A stretch of 19,722 bases of DNA, from the IMG/VR virus record IMGVR_UViG_2537562019_000014. One strand, given 5' to 3'. The translations under genes and the position numbers were made by a program. Of the stretch, positions 38 to 14,175 are shown one piece after another; positions within the stretch are counted from its first letter, which is position 1; each line of letters starts with the position of its first letter. Source of the stretch: a virus. Its lineage: Duplodnaviria > Heunggongvirae > Uroviricota > Caudoviricetes. The notes below the pieces were generated by a model. The model ran no database searches. It saw only the letters and a program-made list of their open reading frames with translations, and was not told the DNA's origin.

Positions 38-200
38 TTCAGAACAAAGTCAAGGAACAAATTTTAACGTTCTGATATTGTGTTTTTATTTATTATCCGT
101 TATTGTGTTCTGTTAGTTTGTGCCTAAGTTAACGCGTTATTAGTTATCTTATTCTCAAATTGTGTTACGATAATCCGAGCGGATAATCAGGAGAGGAAAG

Positions 201-2102
201 ATGAGCAAAGTAAAAATCGGTGAATTAATAAACTCACTTGTTAGCGATGTTGAGTCAATAGATAACTCTGACCGTCCTCAAGGGGAGAAAACAAAAAAAA
301 TAAAGGCTGTTGCATTAAAATTTAAAAATGCATTATTTAATGACAAGCGAAAGTTTAGGGGGAAAGGATTAGAAAAAAGAATTACAGCCAACACATTCAA
401 TGCCTATATGAGCAGGGCCAGAAAACGGTTTGATGATAAACTTCATCATAGCTTTGAAAAAAATATACATCGCCTATCTGAAAAGTATCCTTTATATAAT
501 GAGGAGCTATTGTCATGGCTTTCTCTACCTGCTGCCGATATTCGCCAGAGAATGTCAGCTTTACAGGCAAAATTAAAATTAATTCTCCCTCTATCAGAAG
601 ATTTATCTAATATCAGAATTGGCGATAACAAAAGTCATAATAAGTTATTGAAATTATCAAATAAATATAAAGAGTGGCAATTCGCCATTTCTGATTTAAC
701 TAGCGATAACTGGAAAGATAAGCGCGATTATTTATATAAATTACTACAGCAAGGATCTGCCTTACTTGAGGAGTTGAATCAGCTAAAAGTTAACCATGAG
801 ATTCTCTATCATCTTCAACTAAGCCCTGCCGAACGTGCATCTATCCAGCAACGATGGGCGGACGTTCTGCACAATAAGAAACGTAACGTGGTGGTCATTG
901 ATTACCCTAAATATATGCAAGCTATTTACGATATTATAAATAGCCCTGCTACATTAAATAATCTAAACACTCGTTCAGGTATGGCTCCTTTGGCATTTGC
1001 ACTTGCTGCATTGTCAGGAAGACGAATGATTGAGATTATGTATCAAGGTACATTTACTGTTTCTGGTAAGTATACCGTTGATTTTTTAGGCCAAGCTAAA
1101 AAAAGAACTTCTGATGATATAACCAGAAAAATATATACATTATGCGAAGCAAAAACATTTGTTTATTTAATAAATGTACTTCGCTCATGCCCAGCAGCAT
1201 CTGATTTTGATGATGTCGTTAAAGGTTATGGAGATAACGACACACGCTCTGAAAACGGACGTATTAATGCCATATTAGCAAAGGCTTTTAACCCGTGGGT
1301 TAAATCATTTTTCAAAGATGACCGCCGTGTTTATAAAGATAGTCGTGCTATTTATGCCCGTATTGCGTATGAAATGTTTTTCCGCGTAGATCCTCGTTGG
1401 AAAAACGTAGATGAAGATGTTTTCTTTATGGAAATTTTAGGCCATGACGATGAAAACACTCAATTACACTATAAGCAATTCAAGCTGGCCAACTTCTCAA
1501 AGACATGGAGGCCAAATACTGGAAACGAAAATACCAGGCTGGAAGCATTGCAGCAGCTTGATGACGAAATGCCTGGATTCGCCAGAGGAGATGCCGGGGT
1601 TCGTCTGCATAACACAGTTAAGCAGCTGGTAGAGCAGGACCCCTCTATAAAAATCACGAACAGCACTCTAAGAGCGTTCAAATTTAGCCCAACAATGATT
1701 AGTCGATACCTGGAATTTGCTGCTGATGCTCTGGGGCAATTTGTTGGCGAAAACGGACAATGGCAACTGAAAATAGATACTCCAGAAATCGTTATGCCTG
1801 ACGAAGAAGAACTGGAAGCAATACCTGAACTGGCGGATGAATTGTCAGAGGATGACGATCTGGATGACGACGAAATTGAGATAGAGGAAGAGGAAGAGGA
1901 AGAGGAAGAGAGCGTAGAAGAACAGCAACCGCCTGCACCTTCTTCGCCTGTATCTAAGCCGGTATTTAAGCCGGTGAGAAATATTGGTGATGGCTCATAC
2001 GTTGTTGAGTTTCATTATAATGGCCAGAATTATGCGTGGTCCGGCAGTGCAAACAGCCCCATGTCAGCAATGCAGTTAGCATGGCTGACATATTTCGGTT
2101 AA
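201..2102 (+). CDS. telN: Protelomerase (telomere resolvase) TelN
   Basis: 633-aa ORF with AGGAGAGG RBS; length and N-terminal sequence (MSKVKIGELIN...) closely resemble N15 TelN (631 aa) as recalled; acidic C-terminal linker (run of E encoded by GAGGAA repeats); adjacent to the telO palindrome. Confidence 0.85.
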   Translation: MSKVKIGELINSLVSDVESIDNSDRPQGEKTKKIKAVALKFKNALFNDKRKFRGKGLEKRITANTFNAYMSRARKRFDDKLHHSFEKNIHRLSEKYPLYNEELLSWLSLPAADIRQRMSALQAKLKLILPLSEDLSNIRIGDNKSHNKLLKLSNKYKEWQFAISDLTSDNWKDKRDYLYKLLQQGSALLEELNQLKVNHEILYHLQLSPAERASIQQRWADVLHNKKRNVVVIDYPKYMQAIYDIINSPATLNNLNTRSGMAPLAFALAALSGRRMIEIMYQGTFTVSGKYTVDFLGQAKKRTSDDITRKIYTLCEAKTFVYLINVLRSCPAASDFDDVVKGYGDNDTRSENGRINAILAKAFNPWVKSFFKDDRRVYKDSRAIYARIAYEMFFRVDPRWKNVDEDVFFMEILGHDDENTQLHYKQFKLANFSKTWRPNTGNENTRLEALQQLDDEMPGFARGDAGVRLHNTVKQLVEQDPSIKITNSTLRAFKFSPTMISRYLEFAADALGQFVGENGQWQLKIDTPEIVMPDEEELEAIPELADELSEDDDLDDDEIEIEEEEEEEEESVEEQQPPAPSSPVSKPVFKPVRNIGDGSYVVEFHYNGQNYAWSGSANSPMSAMQLAWLTYFG

Positions 2103-2273: not shown

Positions 2274-2459
2274 CTATTTATTGGTGATTTCTGCTGGCTT
2301 TAGCTGCGCGGATAACTGCTCAAGTTTTTGAACTGCCAGTTCAAAATGCGCGGGTAAAGCATTGCAAATATCATTCGCCACAAACCACGGATCGCCGTTA
2401 ATCATCACTACACGTACCTGATGCTCTTCCTGAAAGGAAAAGACTGCTAACGCGCTCAT
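2274..2459 (-). CDS. Small protein with Bro-N-like N-terminal motif (61 aa), possibly a truncated antirepressor-family remnant
   Basis: Segment VRVVMINGDPWFVANDICNAL matches the conserved Bro-N core pattern; protein is much shorter than a full Bro-N domain. Confidence 0.4.
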   Translation of the reverse strand: MSALAVFSFQEEHQVRVVMINGDPWFVANDICNALPAHFELAVQKLEQLSAQLKPAEITNK

Positions 2460-2689
2460 TCAGCCTCCTTACCGTGCAGCAATTGCGACGAGAGCGATGC
2501 TGAATATCCCTGTGCTTCGTGTGTTAACTCACACGCAATTTGAAGGAGTTTCCCTGCTTCTGAGAGATAAATCGACGCCTCACAGCTGGAGACTGTCCGA
2601 TGGGCTGATGATACGAGCGCATAGACCTGAGCCAGACGTTCATCCAACGATTCCAGCAGGCCAACAGTGTTCATTTTTACCTGATTCAT
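2456..2689 (-). CDS. Hypothetical protein (77 aa)
   Basis: ORF with GGTGG RBS; start overlaps upstream stop and its stop overlaps the downstream start (ATGA at both junctions). Confidence 0.5.
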   Translation of the reverse strand: MNQVKMNTVGLLESLDERLAQVYALVSSAHRTVSSCEASIYLSEAGKLLQIACELTHEAQGYSASLSSQLLHGKEAE

Positions 2690-2850
2690 GCAGCCACCTC
2701 GCGCACCGGAATACGGGCAGACAATACCAGGACAAACCGGCTGGCGAACTGGCGACGAGCTTCCCGTTCAGATGACGCGATGGTGGAAAGATGATGGATG
2801 TGTGACTTTTTGTCTGTGCGAACGACTGCCGCAAATTTGAATTTGAACAT
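2686..2850 (-). CDS. Hypothetical small protein (54 aa), first gene of a coupled three-gene operon
   Basis: ATG at 2850 preceded by GGAG; stop TGA overlaps the ATG of the next ORF (ATGA); below the 60-aa cutoff of the ORF track; own translation MFKFKFAAVVRTDKK... Confidence 0.35.
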   Translation of the reverse strand: MFKFKFAAVVRTDKKSHIHHLSTIASSEREARRQFASRFVLVLSARIPVREVAA

Positions 2851-3147
2851 GGTATGCACTCCGTTTAATTGGTCGTGCTACCACCAGAGTTCTCACGCTC
2901 TTGAATGGTGGTAGCCCAAGCGGGGGTGAGAATACCGGCAAACGAAGAAACCGGCCTGACCGAAGTCAGCCCCGCCTGAGCCACCATAAATCGGATATGC
3001 GCAGGTATATACACACAAAAAAACACGCTGGCGCGTGTTGTGCGCTTCGTTTATCCGGGTTCTCACGCCCGGCTGCGGAATTTGCCGCAGCGGAGTAACT
3101 TTACCGTCAAAACGACGCACACGTCAATAATTTGCAAAGACATTTTA

Positions 3148-3167
3148 CCCCGTGACCAGTCACGGGG
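3148..3167. terminator. Strong hairpin downstream of the minus-strand operon, candidate bidirectional terminator
   Basis: CCCCGTGA-CCAG-TCACGGGG 8-bp GC-rich stem; T-rich on the plus side (GTGTTTTTA), moderately U-rich on the minus side. Confidence 0.4.
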
Positions 3168-3228
3168 ACAGGTGTTTTTATAGTTTGCTTGAACGAGTGA
3201 TCAGAAGTTGATCGTTAATCAAAGGCCA

Positions 3229-3516
3229 TTACGGATTAAGAGAGTGGAAATACCTAACTAACTTACCGGCATCATCACATTTTTCTTTATCTTCTTCCTT
3301 AACATAGCCGCGACAGAAGGCTGAATAAAATTTCGCATTTTCAGAAGCAAAAGCAGCCGTCGAAAGGAGCAGTTCTTTGCATGATTCTTTTGATGCAGCA
3401 TCGGGATTATTTTTACATGCAAGCTCCGCTGATGAGTTAATAACAGAAATGCTATCTTCCTGGGCATAAACCGCAGCAGAAAAGGCAAAACATAAAACCA
3501 AAATAAAACTCTTCAC
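3229..3516 (-). CDS. Secreted/periplasmic small protein with signal peptide (95 aa from the GTG start)
   Basis: GTG at 3516 preceded by AGGAGA with 4-nt spacer; N-terminus MKSFILVLCFAFSAAVYA then QEDS looks like an SPase I signal peptide; 4 Cys in the mature part; the ORF track extends to 3540 without RBS support. Confidence 0.5.
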   Translation of the reverse strand: MKSFILVLCFAFSAAVYAQEDSISVINSSAELACKNNPDAASKESCKELLLSTAAFASENAKFYSAFCRGYVKEEDKEKCDDAGKLVRYFHSLNP

Positions 3517-3543
3517 TTTATCTCCTGTAACAGTTATCACAAC

Positions 3544-3939
3544 TCAATCAACTTTTTTAGCATCAGCCATACGCTTCAACCAGTAATCAACAATCGGCTG
3601 CTCATCCACAGAATGTTTACCAGGTATAACTCGCCAGCTATCTTGCGAAAATCTGCCGTACTTACGCGGGAATAGGCCTTTCTTTATCTCCCGCCATGTA
3701 CTAGGAAAACCATCCACAAAAGTACCAATTAACAGGAGAGGGACAAAAATCAGAGCTACAAACCATCGTGCAAGAAAGTGTTCAACAACAACATTTTCAC
3801 CGTTGTAGTAATACGCATACGCATCCAATATGCGAATTTTCCTTACCTTAAAAATAGCCTTATGCTGAGAACGACTTAACTTGATACGAATGTATCCCTT
3901 ATCCAAAGGGGATTCGTATTTGTATGATTGAACAGCCAT
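3544..3939 (-). CDS. Hypothetical membrane protein (131 aa from ATG)
   Basis: ATG at 3939 lies 2 nt after the stop of the upstream frameshifted ORF; central hydrophobic segment WFVALIFVPLLLIGTFV. Confidence 0.5.
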   Translation of the reverse strand: MAVQSYKYESPLDKGYIRIKLSRSQHKAIFKVRKIRILDAYAYYYNGENVVVEHFLARWFVALIFVPLLLIGTFVDGFPSTWREIKKGLFPRKYGRFSQDSWRVIPGKHSVDEQPIVDYWLKRMADAKKVD

Positions 3940-3941
3940 TT

Positions 3942-4267
3942 TTAACCCCACTCACCATCAGCAAACAAAGCGTTATACTCTGACAATGGTAGACGGTTGC
4001 CCTCGATGTAGAGATTCAGTTCATACTTCGTCTCCGGGTTTTCCTTGTCGGCTCGTTCCCAACGCTCAGCAGCCTCACGCGCCAATAATTCCACTGCTTT
4101 CAGATAATCCTCCGTACGGAACCAGCCAAAGATAAGGCCACGATCTGTTACAGCCCAGGCAACCTTTTTTCTTCCTCCTGGATAGCCTTAATGCGTCGAT
4201 CGCATTCATCCCGGCAAAACTGCAGCTGACGGTAATCAAGTTTGTCCAAAAATGCAGTAGTAGACAT
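3942..4267 (-). pseudogene. Hypothetical ~108-aa gene interrupted by a frameshift at an A6 tract (indel, slippage or sequencing error)
   Basis: ATG at 4267 with GGAG RBS; frame stops at 4148-4150 after 39 codons; the -1 frame is open from the A6 tract (T6 on plus, 4165-4170) to TAA at 3942-3944; one extra A would fuse both parts. Confidence 0.45.
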
Positions 4268-4271
4268 ATTT

Positions 4272-4463
4272 TTACTCCCCGTTCACCGAAAAATCACGAT
4301 AGAAACGTTTCCACATACGATAAGTCTGCGCGAGTTGTTCACCACGAAACATCGCCTTCCTGGCCTTCATGTTTTCCTTGTGAGACTTTCGATCTATGAA
4401 CCAAAACCATTGCTGGAACACACAAAGCAAGAGACACAAAGATAATATCCACTGATTACCCAT
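4272..4463 (-). CDS. Small membrane protein (63 aa) translationally coupled to repA
   Basis: ATG at 4463 overlaps the last codons of repA (TATGGGTAA); hydrophobic N-terminus WILSLCLLLCVFQQWFWFI followed by a basic tail; stop lies 4 nt before the next start. Confidence 0.45.
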   Translation of the reverse strand: MGNQWILSLCLLLCVFQQWFWFIDRKSHKENMKARKAMFRGEQLAQTYRMWKRFYRDFSVNGE

Positions 4464-7400
4464 AGAAAGCGCCCTGCTCTTCGTAGCTGCATGGGCTATT
4501 CCCGGTAATGTATTCACGTAACCGCCGCAGTTCATTGCTGGATAAGTGATCCATGAACTCTGTGAGGTACAGAGATGCAAACGTCATAGCTATGCTGGCT
4601 GATGACCATGATGACATAGTGGCCAGCTCCTCACCGGAAAGCGCACTCATCGCCCAGGACTCAGGTACAACCACTGGCAACACAGCCAAAGCCTCAGAAA
4701 TTACTGAATGAGGGGCGTTTTGAACCTGCTCGTTTGTGGATCGCGTTTTATCATCCATATATATATTGAGATCCAAATCGCGATCCATTTCGATGGCGGT
4801 CTTCTCGGCTTTACGCGTTTTCAGGGTTAGGCCATCTTTCTGACGCTGAGCAAGAATATCCAGCATAAATGCCGCTGATTCAGGCTCAACAAAACGCAAG
4901 GTTGGACGCTTATCGCCGTCTCTGCCGCGACGTTTACCTGTTTTAAGGCCAAGAGAGTCGCAAATGTTTTTAAACAACGCTTCCGGCACTTTAGGCTTCC
5001 CTTTTGGCGTCATAAAACCACCAATGTGCAGAACGTTATTCAACAGGTCACGGCGTTCGGCTGTCATGAGGTTATCTCGAGCAAATTTGAGACGCTCCTG
5101 AGTCGCCTCGCCGGTCATAGTCTCAGGGTTGATACCGCAGTCGATAAAGTACTGCCGGAGAGTTGCTGATTTAAGCGCATAGAAACCGCGCGCCCCGACT
5201 TCAACAGTAGGAGTAGCTTTTACCTTGTGATCGATTATTCCAGGGAATTTAGTTTTAAAGACATCATCAGCCTGCTCGCGAGTCATCGCGGTCACTACAA
5301 AATATTGCCACTGTCCCGCCTGACGGTATGCGTAGGTAAAATTGATGGCTGCTTCTTCCCGGTCGTAACGACGAGCTGTTACCTCATCTAAAAGCATTGT
5401 TTCATAGCGGCGAACTTTGTCTCGAGCACCATCGAAATAGAATTTCAGCGTGCCTTCTTCAACCGGTAGTTTCAGTTCGTTTTCAATATCCCAGCGGACA
5501 AGTTTTGCCTGTTCTTCAAGCGTCAGCGCGCGTTTTTTTAGCAGTTCTTCACGCTCTGATTCTTGTGGAGTTTCTGTATTGAGATGCAGATCCAGTGTCT
5601 GTTCCCACACAATATCCCGCGCTTCTTTACGCAGCTCTTTACCGATATCATTCGCAGCATAATCGGTGGCCAGCGGCGATACCTTATAACCGTCGCTGTG
5701 CATGATGCAGATCATGTTGCTGGCGTAGTCGTTACGCGCAGTCGCTTCAATAGCGGCTGCTTTAATTTTCATCCTGGTAAAGTCGGTATTGGCCACCCCC
5801 ATTGATATACGGTCGCCATCGAAAACGACATCCGTCAGTTCACCGTTCATACCTGCGGTAGCAAGCAATGCCTGGGCGAATGCTCGTTCTATTTTTTGCG
5901 GGTCAGTTTCACGTTTTGCACGAGCTTTATCAAAGCCGATAATAAATTCTTTTGCTGTACGGTCGCGGCGTAGCATTTGCACTGCGTCGCTGGGTACAAC
6001 TTCACCACAGAACATGCCGAAATGACGGTCAAAATGTTTTTGCTCAATCGACACGCCGGATGAAATAGACGGGCTATAAATCAGGCCGTCGTATTTTTTG
6101 ACCATCTTTTTCGGTTGATTGGTAAATGCTTCAACTTCTGGCTCTGGTTTGTTTTTCTGGTTTACACACAGAAATTTCTTACCAGGAAAATGCATTCTCA
6201 GGGTGGCTGTCACATCTTCTGCAAAGGTGGAGCTGTCGGTGGCCAACATGATTTTTTCGCCATCCGATACAGCTTTCACCACCTCGGTCATGATGCGATC
6301 TTTTTCTGTATAAAAAACCCGGATTGGCTCACCTGTTTCGCGGTTGCGAACATCAACAGGTAATTCAATTACGTGGATCTGCAGCCATGCCGGTAAACCT
6401 AGTTCTTCACGGCGTTTCATAGCCAGTTCAGCCAGGTCAACCAGCAGATCATTCGCATCAGCATCCACCATGATTGGGTGTTGTTCTGTTCTGGCCAGCG
6501 CGTCAATTAGCGTATTGAATACAGCCACCGGGTTTTCCATAGCCCGACCGGAAAGAACGGCACGTAGCCCTTGTGTGGCCTCGTCAAAGCCAAAATAGTC
6601 GTGCTGGCGCATCAACGGTTGCCAGCAGTTTTTAACAATCGAGTTTATGCAGATGGTCAGTTTACTGGCGTATGGAGCCATTTCCTGATAGCCAGGATCC
6701 TGATAGTGCAGGATATCGGCTTTTACACCTTTTCCTTCTGTCATCATTTCCCACAGGCCGCCAATAAGGGAGACACGGTGAGCAACAGAGATACCACGTT
6801 CTGAGCTATGCATTAACGGTCGTAACAATCCAGTAGATTTGCCGGAACCCATACCAGCACGGACGATGACTATCCCCTGTAGTGATTGCACGTACTTCAG
6901 GACATCATCGGTCATTACCGAAGTTTCAAAACGCTTATAGGTGATATGTTGAGGGCGTTTATTGGGATCAGTTATGCGTTCGCTGAAAGAGCGCGGAGCC
7001 TGGGCAATACGGCACTTTTTATTCAGGCGACGGGCAATGTGGTCTTTTACCGTAGCGCGATAGATATTTTCCAGTCCCATTTCACGCAGAACGATGCAGA
7101 ACATGTTAAATAAATCTGACGGACTGTTAGGAACCGGACAGGTTAGCATGCCAATATCCACCGCTCTCAGCAGCTCTTTGGCAAAAGTACGACGGTTATC
7201 CCGCTTAATTGTCTTCAGGCGGTTGAGCGTCAGAGATAGCAAATCAGTACCAGTTTTCAGGCGGTTTGCTGTTGCAAATAGTTGACGTGCTGTTTCACGA
7301 AGTCCACGTAGTTTGTGCAGGTCGTTGAAGTCACTGCACTCCATTTGCGGATCGTCTTCAAAAGTTGGATAGACGCAGCGGACATCGTTGAATTTCGATA

Positions 7401-8451
7401 AGATTTCATAGCCAGTCCGCAGGCCGGTATTCCCTTTTCCTTCTGTGGCAGATTTCCGGTCATTATCCAGTGCGCAGGTGATTTTTGCCGCCGGGTACAT
7501 GTTTACCAGTTGTTCCACAACATGAACCATGTTGTTAGCGGATACAGCGACAACCACAGCGTCAAAGCGTTTATCTTTTTTCGTGGCAAGCCAGATGGAT
7601 GCACCAGTAGCAAAACCTTCTGTAACAGCGATGTTTTGCGCCCCTTTCAGCTCACCGATAACAAAGCAGGCACCGACGAAATCGCCGCTGGTTACTGCGC
7701 TGGTCTGGTATTTTCCACCTTGTTTGTCGATTCGCTGCCAACCCACAATACGACCATCGTAACGACCGTCCAGGTGAGCCAGAGGGATAGCCATATACGT
7801 GGTTGGCCCCCTGCTCCATTTTGCGCTGTCGTGACTGGTCACGCGACGCACATCACACGAATTAAAAACGTCACGAATACCTTTTTTAATCGCATATGGC
7901 CATGAGCCGTCTTCTGCAGGAGCATGTTCCCACGCGCTGTGAAATGCCAGCCATCCCAGCAAACGTTCATGGTCAATTTGGTTGTTTTTCAGGTCATTAA
8001 TTCGTTTTTGTTCTTCACGGCGACGACGTGCTTCGGCCTGACGTTCTATTCTTGCCCGTTCTTCTTCCGGTTGTGCGACCACGGTCGCATTATTCCGTTG
8101 TTGCTCACGGCGATATTCAGAAAACAGGAAGGAGAAACCGCTCCATGAGCCAGCATCGCTGCCTTTATGGACGAAGTTAATGAACGGGTAATCAATCCCT
8201 TTGCTGTGTTCCAGCCGGGAGTAAATTTCTACGCGTCCTTTGAGGCTCTTCTCGAGAGCTTCTGGAGATGTTTTATTGTATGAAGAGTAACGCTCAACAC
8301 CCCCGCGAGGGTTGAGTTGGATGTTGTCGGAACAGGCAGGCCAGTTGATACCAGCCATCTGTGCCAGCTCGGTTAGTTCATCCCGTGCTGCTTCAATTAG
8401 CGAGAACGGATCGCTGCCAAAGCGATCCGCATAGAAATCGTTTAATGTCAT
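4456..8451 (-). CDS. repA: Replication protein RepA, multidomain primase-helicase
   Basis: 1331-aa ORF; Walker A motif GMGSGKST; TOPRIM-like primase region; size and position match N15 RepA (about 1324 aa) located between telN and cB. Confidence 0.85.
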   Translation of the reverse strand: MTLNDFYADRFGSDPFSLIEAARDELTELAQMAGINWPACSDNIQLNPRGGVERYSSYNKTSPEALEKSLKGRVEIYSRLEHSKGIDYPFINFVHKGSDAGSWSGFSFLFSEYRREQQRNNATVVAQPEEERARIERQAEARRRREEQKRINDLKNNQIDHERLLGWLAFHSAWEHAPAEDGSWPYAIKKGIRDVFNSCDVRRVTSHDSAKWSRGPTTYMAIPLAHLDGRYDGRIVGWQRIDKQGGKYQTSAVTSGDFVGACFVIGELKGAQNIAVTEGFATGASIWLATKKDKRFDAVVVAVSANNMVHVVEQLVNMYPAAKITCALDNDRKSATEGKGNTGLRTGYEILSKFNDVRCVYPTFEDDPQMECSDFNDLHKLRGLRETARQLFATANRLKTGTDLLSLTLNRLKTIKRDNRRTFAKELLRAVDIGMLTCPVPNSPSDLFNMFCIVLREMGLENIYRATVKDHIARRLNKKCRIAQAPRSFSERITDPNKRPQHITYKRFETSVMTDDVLKYVQSLQGIVIVRAGMGSGKSTGLLRPLMHSSERGISVAHRVSLIGGLWEMMTEGKGVKADILHYQDPGYQEMAPYASKLTICINSIVKNCWQPLMRQHDYFGFDEATQGLRAVLSGRAMENPVAVFNTLIDALARTEQHPIMVDADANDLLVDLAELAMKRREELGLPAWLQIHVIELPVDVRNRETGEPIRVFYTEKDRIMTEVVKAVSDGEKIMLATDSSTFAEDVTATLRMHFPGKKFLCVNQKNKPEPEVEAFTNQPKKMVKKYDGLIYSPSISSGVSIEQKHFDRHFGMFCGEVVPSDAVQMLRRDRTAKEFIIGFDKARAKRETDPQKIERAFAQALLATAGMNGELTDVVFDGDRISMGVANTDFTRMKIKAAAIEATARNDYASNMICIMHSDGYKVSPLATDYAANDIGKELRKEARDIVWEQTLDLHLNTETPQESEREELLKKRALTLEEQAKLVRWDIENELKLPVEEGTLKFYFDGARDKVRRYETMLLDEVTARRYDREEAAINFTYAYRQAGQWQYFVVTAMTREQADDVFKTKFPGIIDHKVKATPTVEVGARGFYALKSATLRQYFIDCGINPETMTGEATQERLKFARDNLMTAERRDLLNNVLHIGGFMTPKGKPKVPEALFKNICDSLGLKTGKRRGRDGDKRPTLRFVEPESAAFMLDILAQRQKDGLTLKTRKAEKTAIEMDRDLDLNIYMDDKTRSTNEQVQNAPHSVISEALAVLPVVVPESWAMSALSGEELATMSSWSSASIAMTFASLYLTEFMDHLSSNELRRLREYITGNSPCSYEEQGAFYG
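4737..4787. other. Candidate replication origin inside the 3' end of repA
   Basis: 9-bp inverted repeat TGGATCGCG / CGCGATCCA flanking a (TA)5 AT-rich core; three GATC sites within 50 bp; N15 ori is known to map within the 3' part of repA. Confidence 0.3.
8072..8089. repeat. SopB-type centromere-like palindrome, copy 1 (inside repA coding sequence)
   Basis: TGTGCGACCACGGTCGCA, 7-bp inverted arms with AC centre; closely resembles the F sopC SopB-binding repeat TGGGACCACGGTCCCA; one of four copies in the window. Confidence 0.55.
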
Positions 8452-8574
8452 TTTTTAGCCATTCCATGCGAATTATGTTTTTTCGGGTTGAAAAAATCCG
8501 CAGGAGCAGCCACAATAAACGCATCTTGAATTGACGGAATCCGTCGCTTTGTTGTGGCTGCTTCCTGAAAAGGA

Positions 8575-8602
8575 CCCGAGTTTGCCGACTCGGGTTTTTT
8601 TT
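8575..8602. terminator. Bidirectional intrinsic terminator between cB and repA
   Basis: CCCGAGT-TTGCCG-ACTCGGG 7-bp stem followed by T8 on the plus strand and preceded by an A-rich run (U-tract for the minus-strand transcript). Confidence 0.55.
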
Positions 8603-8696: not shown

Positions 8697-9293
8697 TCAT
8701 CTACCCTCAACCATGAATGATTTGATCGTTCCGACTATTTGGTGAACAAATTCAAGATCGCTTTTCCTGAAGATAGCGCGTTGTGAGTTTGTTCCATCCA
8801 GATAGTAATTTTCATCATCAAAACGGGCTAGGCGCTGGATAGTGATATTTCCTGCAGTATCACGAACCAGAACATCCTCGCCGGGGACCAGTTCCAGCGC
8901 AGAATCGACCAGGAGAAAATCGCCTGGCTGATAGTTTCCCTGCGTAAGATTGCTGATAGTTAACGCATACACAGTATTGCGCTGGCTGATGAATGGCAGG
9001 AATCGCTCAGTATTTGGAACCTGTCCCGGCTTCCACTCTTCATCAGGCCCACTTTCAGTTGTGCCAATAACAGGAATGCGATCAGGGTCATATTCTGTCC
9101 CATATAGCACCCAATGTACTGGCTTGCGTAAGCACTTAGCCAGGGCAATACCTATCTCCAGTGACGGCATTACGTCGCCACGTTCTAAGTTTTGGACGCC
9201 TGCTATAGAGATATCGACAGCCTCAGCAACTTCTCGCAACGTCAGCTTCATCTCTAAACGGCGTGCTTTCAGTCGTTCGCCTCGTGTTTTCAT
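8697..9293 (-). CDS. cB: CI-like prophage repressor (HTH N-terminal domain, LexA/CI-type C-terminal domain)
   Basis: 198-aa ORF divergent from a cro-like gene with operator palindromes between them; N-terminal XRE-type HTH (LTLREVAEAVDISIAGVQNLERG); position matches N15 cB. Confidence 0.8.
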   Translation of the reverse strand: MKTRGERLKARRLEMKLTLREVAEAVDISIAGVQNLERGDVMPSLEIGIALAKCLRKPVHWVLYGTEYDPDRIPVIGTTESGPDEEWKPGQVPNTERFLPFISQRNTVYALTISNLTQGNYQPGDFLLVDSALELVPGEDVLVRDTAGNITIQRLARFDDENYYLDGTNSQRAIFRKSDLEFVHQIVGTIKSFMVEGR

Positions 9294-13577: not shown

Positions 13578-13865
13578 TCAATAGACGGCATTAATATTAA
13601 TCGTTGCACCGCATGCTTGGGCATATTTTGATAAAGTTTTCATGCTTGCCCCTAAAGGATTGCTTTCCAGGCGGCTGATAGCTGACGGGCGCAATCCCAT
13701 TCGTTCAGCCAGAGCTGACTTCGTTAAACCTGCTCTTTCCCTCATTTCGTATAACATTTCGACCATCTCCAGCTCTTTATCGGCCTCTTCATATCCTTTG
13801 ATGGCTTCTGGAGTGTTGAGAAGTTTTTCTTTTACTTCGTTAAACGGGATGCCTTTCGCTTTCAT
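13578..13865 (-). CDS. HTH (XRE-type) antitoxin, HigA-like
   Basis: 95-aa ORF with C-terminal HTH (LTKSALAERMGLRPSAISRLE); start overlaps the stop of the upstream toxin-like reading frame (TGATG). Confidence 0.7.
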   Translation of the reverse strand: MKAKGIPFNEVKEKLLNTPEAIKGYEEADKELEMVEMLYEMRERAGLTKSALAERMGLRPSAISRLESNPLGASMKTLSKYAQACGATININAVY

Positions 13866-14175
13866 CAGTTCATCTCCTTCAGGCGAGTTCTGGCGATTTC
13901 GATAGCCTTCACCGGTGTTTTCTGTGTCTTTTTTACAAATGCATGCAATAGATAAATTTCGTTACCAGTCGCGTAGGCGTACAGCGTTCTTGCGATGTTT
14001 TTTTCCCCTACTCGTATTCAAAAAGCCCTCCACCTATTACACGGCTATGGGGCATCTTCAGTTTGTTGCCTTCTTTCTCCAGTCGCTCAATTAATCTGGT
14101 CATGCGACCTCGCAAATCATCTGGTAGTTCAAGCAGTTCATCCAGTGCTGCAGGGTGGGTTATCACGTTAAACAT
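13865..14175 (-). pseudogene. HigB/RelE-like toxin (Gp49 family) disrupted by a 1-nt frameshift
   Basis: ATG 14175 with GGAGG RBS; frame stops at TAG 14008-14010 after ...GGGLFEYE; the -1 frame continues GEKNIARTLYAYATGNEIYLLHAFVKKTQKTP...; restoring one nt near 14014-14016 gives a contiguous ~103-aa toxin. Confidence 0.6.

Follow-up and report, generated by a model that had tools for sequence, protein, structure and literature searches.

Four small genes after repA in an N15-like linear phage-plasmid: a probable mosaic accessory tail with candidate envelope-directed cargo

The gene cassette downstream of repA

We analysed four small genes, designated P1 to P4, which direct reading places tightly packed on the minus strand directly after the replication gene repA in IMG/VR virus record IMGVR_UViG_2537562019_000014, a caudoviral stretch of 19,722 nucleotides (nt) that is called the window throughout. 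From its map of open reading frames (ORFs) and its alignment with Escherichia phage PhiR46_1 (PV340565; from E. coli ECOR13), the window is identified as the right arm of an N15-like linear phage-plasmid. The cassette region (3100-4600) displays 99.1% identity to PhiR46_1, while the remainder of the window aligns at ~96-98% identity. The first gene of the operon is repA (4456-8451, minus strand), which in the ORF list encodes a primase/origin-binding replication protein of 1331 amino acids (aa) and which is labelled as a primase or a CyRepA1 replication protein in PhiR46_1 and in RefSeq plasmids. The best-supported composition of the cassette is a conserved gp35-family gene that is broken here (P2), two widely shared genes encoding a hydrophobic helix (P1 and P3) and P4, a rare cargo gene for a predicted periplasmic protein, which takes up the most variable slot.

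The ORF list and direct reading give the following arrangement. P1 (4272-4463, minus strand) encodes 63 aa from an ATG at 4463 that overlaps with the stop of repA (ATGGGTAA). Its best 19-residue Kyte-Doolittle window (residues 5-23, score 1.85) corresponds to an N-terminal hydrophobic helix, after which comes a basic tail of 40 aa (isoelectric point 10.4), and the gene is carried as an annotated coding sequence in PV340565. P2 (3942-4267, minus strand, from the ORF reading and the PhiR46_1 alignment) has its ATG at 4267, 4 nt after the P1 stop, and when repaired encodes an acidic protein of 108 aa without any hydrophobic segment on the Kyte-Doolittle scale. P3 (3544-3939, minus strand) encodes 131 aa from an ATG lying 2 nt after the P2 stop, with a single strongly hydrophobic helix at about residues 58-78 (best window 60-78, score 2.27), just behind which G77-x-P79-x-T81 is conserved. 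P4 (3229-3516, minus strand) encodes 95 aa from a GTG start with AGGAG 6 nt upstream; its best hydropathy window covers residues 1-19 (score 1.59), and the cleavage motif reads AVYA↓QE. The P4 product is predicted to be exported by the Sec pathway with a signal peptide at residues 1-18 and to be periplasmic, and its mature form, acidic and 77 aa long, is predicted to hold four helices together with four conserved cysteines.

An earlier sequence-only reading of the window had described a 63-aa transmembrane protein with an ATG overlapping the repA stop, a 131-aa membrane protein and a 95-aa signal-peptide protein, and these descriptions agree with the coordinates, the hydropathy profiles and the cleavage motif given above. 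It had also listed a '~108-aa cytoplasmic protein', for which the lack of a hydrophobic segment stands, but not the intact ORF. On the coding strand, the promoter scan found no sigma-70-like promoter from 4700 to 3128. Since P1 overlaps repA and no promoter-like site lies between repA and P4, the four genes are probably transcribed with repA.

P2 and the gp35 family

Repaired P2 aligns to N15 gp35 with 63.6% identity over 107 aa (E 7e-51) and to the entire profile phrog_10878 (positions 1-104 of 104, E 4e-52), a family of unknown function, and it lies just 3' of repA, as in telomere phages. P2 is accordingly classed here, from its sequence, as an orthologue of N15 gp35, that is, as a conserved telomere-phage gene and not as novel cargo. 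Indeed, the gp35 family displays 47 invariant columns across 8 telomere-phage homologues and 63-80% identity, compared with ~35% for P1 and ~30% for P3 over the same distances, and its ratio of nonsynonymous to synonymous substitutions (dN/dS, by the Nei-Gojobori method here and below) is 0.09-0.13 on divergent pairs. Sequence and profile searches of the PDB returned no match for P2.

In the window, the 5' frame of P2 (4267-4148) runs into a stop after 39 codons (39 aa), and the remainder down to 3942 continues in the -1 frame. The alignment to PhiR46_1 locates the break in a homopolymer at 4165-4170 (minus strand), which contains six A residues (A6) in the window and seven (A7) in PhiR46_1; an intact 108-aa ORF is present in PhiR46_1, pF16EC0617-5, pG749_3 and pCAVP367-48. 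At the sequence level, P2 is thus shown to be inactivated in the window by a 1-nt deletion. A programmed -1 frameshift at the A run was considered and rejected, as PhiR46_1 reads through its A7 run in an uninterrupted frame, three other close relatives are intact, more distant ones do not have the run, and AAA-AGG, the context in the zero frame, does not form a standard slippery heptamer. Note that only two gene-breaking indels were seen in the ~17-kilobase PhiR46_1 alignment, namely this one and a second at ~14016 in a toxin gene (see below); both could be real pseudogenes or assembly errors.

P3 and P4 families and the Spackle label

P3 matches phrog_15458 over its full length (1-131 of 131, E 9e-92), a family whose function is likewise unknown, and keeps the conserved positions R23, H26, Y43, G77, P79, T81 and D100. 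The profile search gathered relatives in 103 clusters, and all those with an organism name belong to Enterobacterales, in many genera. The genomic contexts of these relatives are diverse: they stand where the nin region begins, directly behind O and DnaB, in lambdoid prophages of Pectobacterium and Pantoea; after a DNA polymerase in a Proteus Gorganvirus; close to the integrase of a Citrobacter prophage, surrounded by recombination genes; and between the large terminase and the portal in Swiduovirus-like phages. P3 is thereby shown to belong to a promiscuous phage family whose members have one hydrophobic helix and lie in the accessory regions of many Enterobacterales phages. The idea that P3 always follows replication genes was ruled out by the contexts near recombination genes and between terminase and portal.

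P4 is rare. It matches phrog_26765 over its full length (E 4e-63, family function unknown), and an exhaustive HMMER pass over 1.84 billion representatives returned only 12 proteins at E<=1e-3. Among 50,697 phage records, a P4-type gene was detectable by tblastn in PhiR46_1 only. The distant full-length relatives (32-45% identity) keep the signal peptide and four invariant cysteines. P4-like genes, too, are found in several contexts: in another telomere phage with different upstream genes, where the final slot ahead of icd is occupied; between an Arc/Bro-N/ORF6N anti-repressor cluster and a tape measure gene; and, together with a gene for a 137-aa lipoprotein, between lambda-type tail genes I and J on a metagenome contig (ERZ27284841 k141_5454, extracted locus 4937-5723). 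Judged from gene order, the P3 and P4 contexts are the pattern of independently mobile accessory genes.

The PhiR46_1 record (PV340565.1, 3086-3373) names the P4 product 'Spackle exclusion protein'. T4 Spackle (gene sp) is a periplasmic inhibitor of the gp5 tail lysozyme, and if P4 belonged to its family, it would block the tail lysozyme of a superinfecting phage. Apart from this public annotation, the idea draws on a general likeness, since both are small, Sec-exported and largely helical proteins of similar length (by prediction for P4), with disulfides in the periplasm. As a family assignment it is contradicted, because no sequence or fold similarity was found outside the signal peptide: when the P4 family profile was compared with T4 Sp by hhalign, only residues 1-16 aligned, which are signal peptide; phmmer and hmmsearch against the PDB gave no Spackle match; and no Spackle entry stood among the matches listed by either fold search. 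We consider membership of the Spackle family highly improbable, and the label, unsupported by these comparisons, looks like an annotation artefact. An assignment of P4 to DUF2385/TIGR02301 was also rejected, as the matches were weak, below the cut-off, confined to a single member and absent from other family members.

It should be noticed that many database 'homologues' of P4 are frameshifted copies that switch into an alternative frame (3258-3488). Several of these stem from a single series of plasmid assemblies of E. coli blood isolates and point to assembly errors in homopolymers.

Coding status and database searches

All four genes show purifying selection, with dN/dS below 1 on divergent pairs. 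In addition to the values for P2, the ratio is 0.28 for P1 against Klebsiella, with synonymous sites near saturation, 0.27 for P3, and 0.21 for P4, the last from only nine substitutions. Closest-pair ratios (0.41-0.76) rest on five to nine substitutions per gene and thus carry little weight. Translated matches of P1 were found in 80 plasmids, i.e., 52 from Klebsiella, 25 from Escherichia, 2 from Citrobacter and 1 from Shigella. Given the PHROG matches of P2, P3 and P4, the matches of P1 in 80 plasmids and the dN/dS values, the four genes are, on this comparative evidence, more than chance ORFs.

These data also bear on whether P1-P4 are decaying passengers without current function. Such decay could account for the frameshift of P2 here, the deletion of P1 in one relative, the absence of the cassette in others and the many frameshifted P4 copies in databases. 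However, the latter may be assembly errors, dN/dS lies well below 1 on divergent pairs, the four cysteines are invariant in distant P4 relatives, and P3 is spread over 103 clusters across many genera, so that we regard general decay as improbable.

Searches of Pfam, NCBIfam and PADLOC returned nothing above threshold for any of the four proteins, and the defence-protein models of PADLOC-DB v2 gave no family for them at E up to 1. P1 matched neither a PHROG nor a Pfam family. P3 and P4 found no match in PDB sequence and profile searches or in fold searches. The statement of the sequence-only reading that none of the four resembles a known replication or structural protein therefore held in the Pfam, NCBIfam, PADLOC and PDB searches and in the fold searches with P3 and P4. 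N15 carries the genes gp36, gp35, gp34 and gp33, which resemble the cassette in position, strand and gene number and lie just upstream of C4/icd/ant. Only P2 has a counterpart there (gp35, of unknown role), whereas BLASTP found no similarity between P1 and gp36, P3 and gp34, or P4 and gp33. The N15 genes gp33-gp36 are likewise without known function, and a literature search found nothing on the functions of N15 genes 33-36 or of PhiR46_1.

Gene content after repA in related elements

The cassette is present in 29 PLSDB plasmids and in 17 of 5426 complete E. coli genomes, where it is plasmid-borne in every case. The variability among N15-like phage-plasmids that the sequence-only reading had asked about is real, as the content after repA differs between elements. 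While the window, PhiR46_1 and pF16EC0617-5 carry P1-P2-P3-P4, pG749_3 carries P1-P2-P3 and then, in place of P4, a gene for a 270-aa lipoprotein (LLSGC lipobox). In p23GD35035_P4, P1 is largely deleted and followed by P2-P3-P4; pS142-3 keeps P2 plus remnants; pEC12401-3 and E. albertii pEA26_5 have a single 74-aa gene only; YDC107_1 has gp36-P3; and Enterobacter phage MStein-2023a has gp36-gp35 and a P3-like gene. In Klebsiella, NAR688 carries P1-like and gp35-like genes followed by ImmA/TelA, and K. pneumoniae INF305 plasmid 7 carries P1-like, gp35-like and P3-like genes followed by a pesticin-like muramidase and an opposed gene for a periplasmic immunity protein. In relatives, the last slot or region thus either is empty or holds one of three contents: the 270-aa lipoprotein, the pesticin-like muramidase and its immunity gene, or a pore-forming telocin together with ImmA. 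The predicted lipoprotein stands in the P4 slot of six plasmids, and its pG749_3 representative (NZ_CP014491.1, extracted locus 2648-3460) has no Pfam match and no tblastn match in the 50,697 phage records. As a side observation, the locus between tail genes I and J is a second case in which a P4-type protein is placed beside a lipoprotein.

In this comparison of gene orders, P1, P2, P3 and P4 assort independently, which bears directly on the proposal that they form a single undescribed system. A four-component envelope system for superinfection exclusion or abortive infection would be consistent with the tight translational coupling of P1-P4, with the membrane or secretion signals of P1, P3 and P4, and with the conservation of all four genes as a set in at least 18 plasmids. 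In contrast, each gene is found without the others, relatives of P3 and P4 occur alone in unrelated phages, P2 is a gp35 orthologue that is broken in the window, and PADLOC gave no matches. We consider such a single system quite unlikely. The broader proposal of an accessory, envelope-targeting module survives in part: the genes are accessory, and P1, P3 and P4 carry membrane or secretion signals, but they do not travel as one module.

The Klebsiella elements raise another possibility, namely that P4, and the lipoprotein replacing it in pG749_3, are orphan bacteriocin immunity or protection factors, as E. coli counterparts of the telocin immunity genes. The telocin locus (TelA/ImmA) lies between repA and telN in Klebsiella telomere phages (PMC12042878), the same interval as the cassette and directly after P1-like and gp35-like genes; the same interval also holds the pesticin-like muramidase with its periplasmic immunity protein, and P4 is itself predicted to be periplasmic. 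However, the window differs from the telocin cassettes in that it carries no toxin-sized gene (no cassette ORF exceeds 131 aa, and none has a Pfam match), P4 resembles the Klebsiella pesticin-type immunity protein in the signal peptide only, and a survey of N15-like elements in clinical Enterobacteriaceae reported neither complete defence systems nor telocin homologues (bioRxiv 10.1101/2025.09.12.675607). An orphan immunity role is therefore unlikely.

Interpretation of the cassette

Altogether, we explain the locus as a mosaic tail of the repA operon that carries envelope-directed cargo, a reading to which we give, as a whole, a probability of about 0.6. Its first part is the firmer one: by gene content and order, the cassette is very probably a mosaic accessory tail of the repA operon. 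At its promoter-distal end, this operon would carry four small, mutually independent accessory genes in a packing suited to coupled translation, and any expression of repA by the plasmid prophage would also yield P1-P4. The envelope is the most likely site of action for P4, and possibly for P1 and P3, as suggested by their predicted location and by what relatives carry in the same interval. There, one or more of these proteins could bind an envelope component or an incoming one, and this binding could lead to superinfection exclusion or guard against muralytic or pore-forming attack. Such exclusion or protection is how the 'moron' envelope proteins of prophages act. As the specific function of the cassette, exclusion or protection is plausible but put forward only tentatively.

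Several observations weigh against this reading. The order P1-gp35-P3 is the same in E. coli and in a Klebsiella plasmid although the sequences are only 30-70% identical, and the three genes could be working together. In the AlphaFold2 (AF2) model of P3, the secondary-structure string places strands from both sides of the hydrophobic helix, which leaves doubt on the prediction that this helix may span the membrane. Moreover, the proteome of the NAR688 lysogen did not list gp48 and gp49 (PMC12042878), which on our ORF reading are the P1-like and gp35-like genes in the order gp47 RepA, gp48 and gp49 (both hypothetical) and gp50 ImmA, although RepA was also unlisted. The negative fold searches with P3 and P4 are in turn not decisive, since the structure models were of moderate confidence (predicted local distance difference test 75-79). 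Note that this proteome was rejected as expression evidence for the gp35 family, because 'gp35' in that paper's own numbering is a RelE/ParE toxin.

The main alternative takes the conserved order at face value and makes P1-gp35-P3 a RepA-linked module for replication, copy control or membrane attachment, with P4 as unrelated cargo. It is worth testing because E. coli and Klebsiella, in spite of strong divergence, have retained this order, as seen in K. pneumoniae INF305 plasmid 7. In addition, the start of P1 overlaps the repA stop in the Klebsiella homologue as it does here, the Citrobacter homologue lies directly after repA, gp35 is far more conserved than its neighbours, and in other phages replication genes are in some cases followed by a P3 relative. 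On the other hand, P3 relatives also lie beside portal or recombination genes, some plasmids carry a deletion of P1, YDC107_1 lacks gp35, and pEC12401-3 and pEA26_5 have none of the set. A passage of PMC10612081, citing Ziegelin 2005 and Mardanov & Ravin 2006, further reports that repA, telN and the telomere site are sufficient for linear plasmid replication. We thus consider the RepA-linked module fairly unlikely.

Two bolder readings can be put forward. P1-gp35-P3 might be a RepA-coupled module that links the replication protein to the membrane or excludes related telomere phages, while P4 might be the founder of a new family, a disulfide-stapled periplasmic four-helix protein with a Spackle-like or immunity-like action and an unrelated fold. 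Both are speculative and, on balance, doubtful. If true, the interval between repA and telN would be a general 'envelope warfare' slot across E. coli and Klebsiella telomere phages.

Returning to the mosaic accessory tail, two known arrangements offer further comparison. The simABC operon of bacteriophage P1 encodes small proteins, and the N-termini of SimA, SimB and SimC are hydrophobic and resemble signal peptides; the operon immediately adjoins c4-icd-ant in a phage-plasmid, as the cassette adjoins C4/icd/ant. In the bacteriophage P1 record, SimC is annotated as a superimmunity protein, and SimA and SimB as putative accessory functions. However, sim is transcribed divergently from c4, whereas the cassette shares the orientation of the C4 region and is part of the repA operon, and the cassette proteins showed no similarity to SimA, SimB or SimC (best BLASTP E 0.24); the likeness is a positional and architectural analogy only. 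Lambdoid moron and nin-region genes are similarly small, of unknown function, located in accessory regions and able to move between phages, and P3 relatives are indeed found in nin regions. They are a category and not a family, and thus predict no specific mechanism.

The finding is modest, as it concerns hypothetical proteins in a known variable region, i.e., accessory or moron genes of phages within an interval already known for its cargo. N15-like phage-plasmids are nevertheless common in clinical E. coli, Shigella and Klebsiella, and Klebsiella elements have, between repA and telN, bacteriocins that alter strain competition. The E. coli elements appear to fill this interval with different small envelope-directed genes, which makes it a concrete place to seek exclusion or protection functions. 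The analysis also corrects a misleading public 'Spackle' label and sets the conserved telomere-phage gene of the gp35 family apart from the true cargo.

The operon end and neighbouring features

Beyond P4, a hairpin at 3148-3167 (minus strand, identified by folding) marks a possible operon boundary. Its G+C-rich stem pairs perfectly over 8 bp and closes a loop of 4 nt; this stem is weaker in N15 than in the window. The sequence-only reading had ended the operon at this 'strong hairpin'; the stem is real, but the coding strand has no U tract (its tail reads UAAAAUGUCUUUG), the terminator scan did not call it, and it does not have the form of an intrinsic terminator. A canonical terminator is found beyond it at 3039-3022, inside the immA leader.

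The cassette adjoins the immA region, which is the bacteriophage P1 immI-type secondary immunity region of N15-like phages. The start of this region (2904-3127, minus strand) was delimited by Rfam matches at the gathering threshold and by the promoter and terminator scan. It includes a promoter-like site (3127-3098), a c4-a1b1 target element (3052-3104), an isrK-like RNA containing the terminator (3018-3091) and the C4 antisense RNA (2904-2991, 82 bits), all on the minus strand, and the region also holds an icd-like gene, a gp31-like gene and a 61-aa Bro-N anti-repressor remnant. The latter (2274-2459, minus strand) compares with anti-repressors of 259-264 aa in N15, NAR688 and pG749_3; the truncation is common to PhiR46_1 and pCAVP367-48, and the window lineage may have lost anti-repressor-mediated induction.

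On the ORF map, the window further carries the protelomerase gene (201-2102, plus strand), a gene for a LexA-type CB repressor (8697-9293, minus strand), cro- and Q-like genes, a Dam methylase gene, a lysis cassette and the small terminase gene. In the gap between cB and repA, a long terminator-like hairpin (8567-8602, plus strand; 16 pairs, with a T tract) matches the position of a stem-loop annotated upstream of repA in N15. Finally, a RelE/ParE-type toxin gene (14008-14175, minus strand), located upstream of a helix-turn-helix antitoxin gene (13578-13865), is cut to 55 aa by the 1-nt deletion at ~14016, while PhiR46_1 retains an intact copy of 103 aa.
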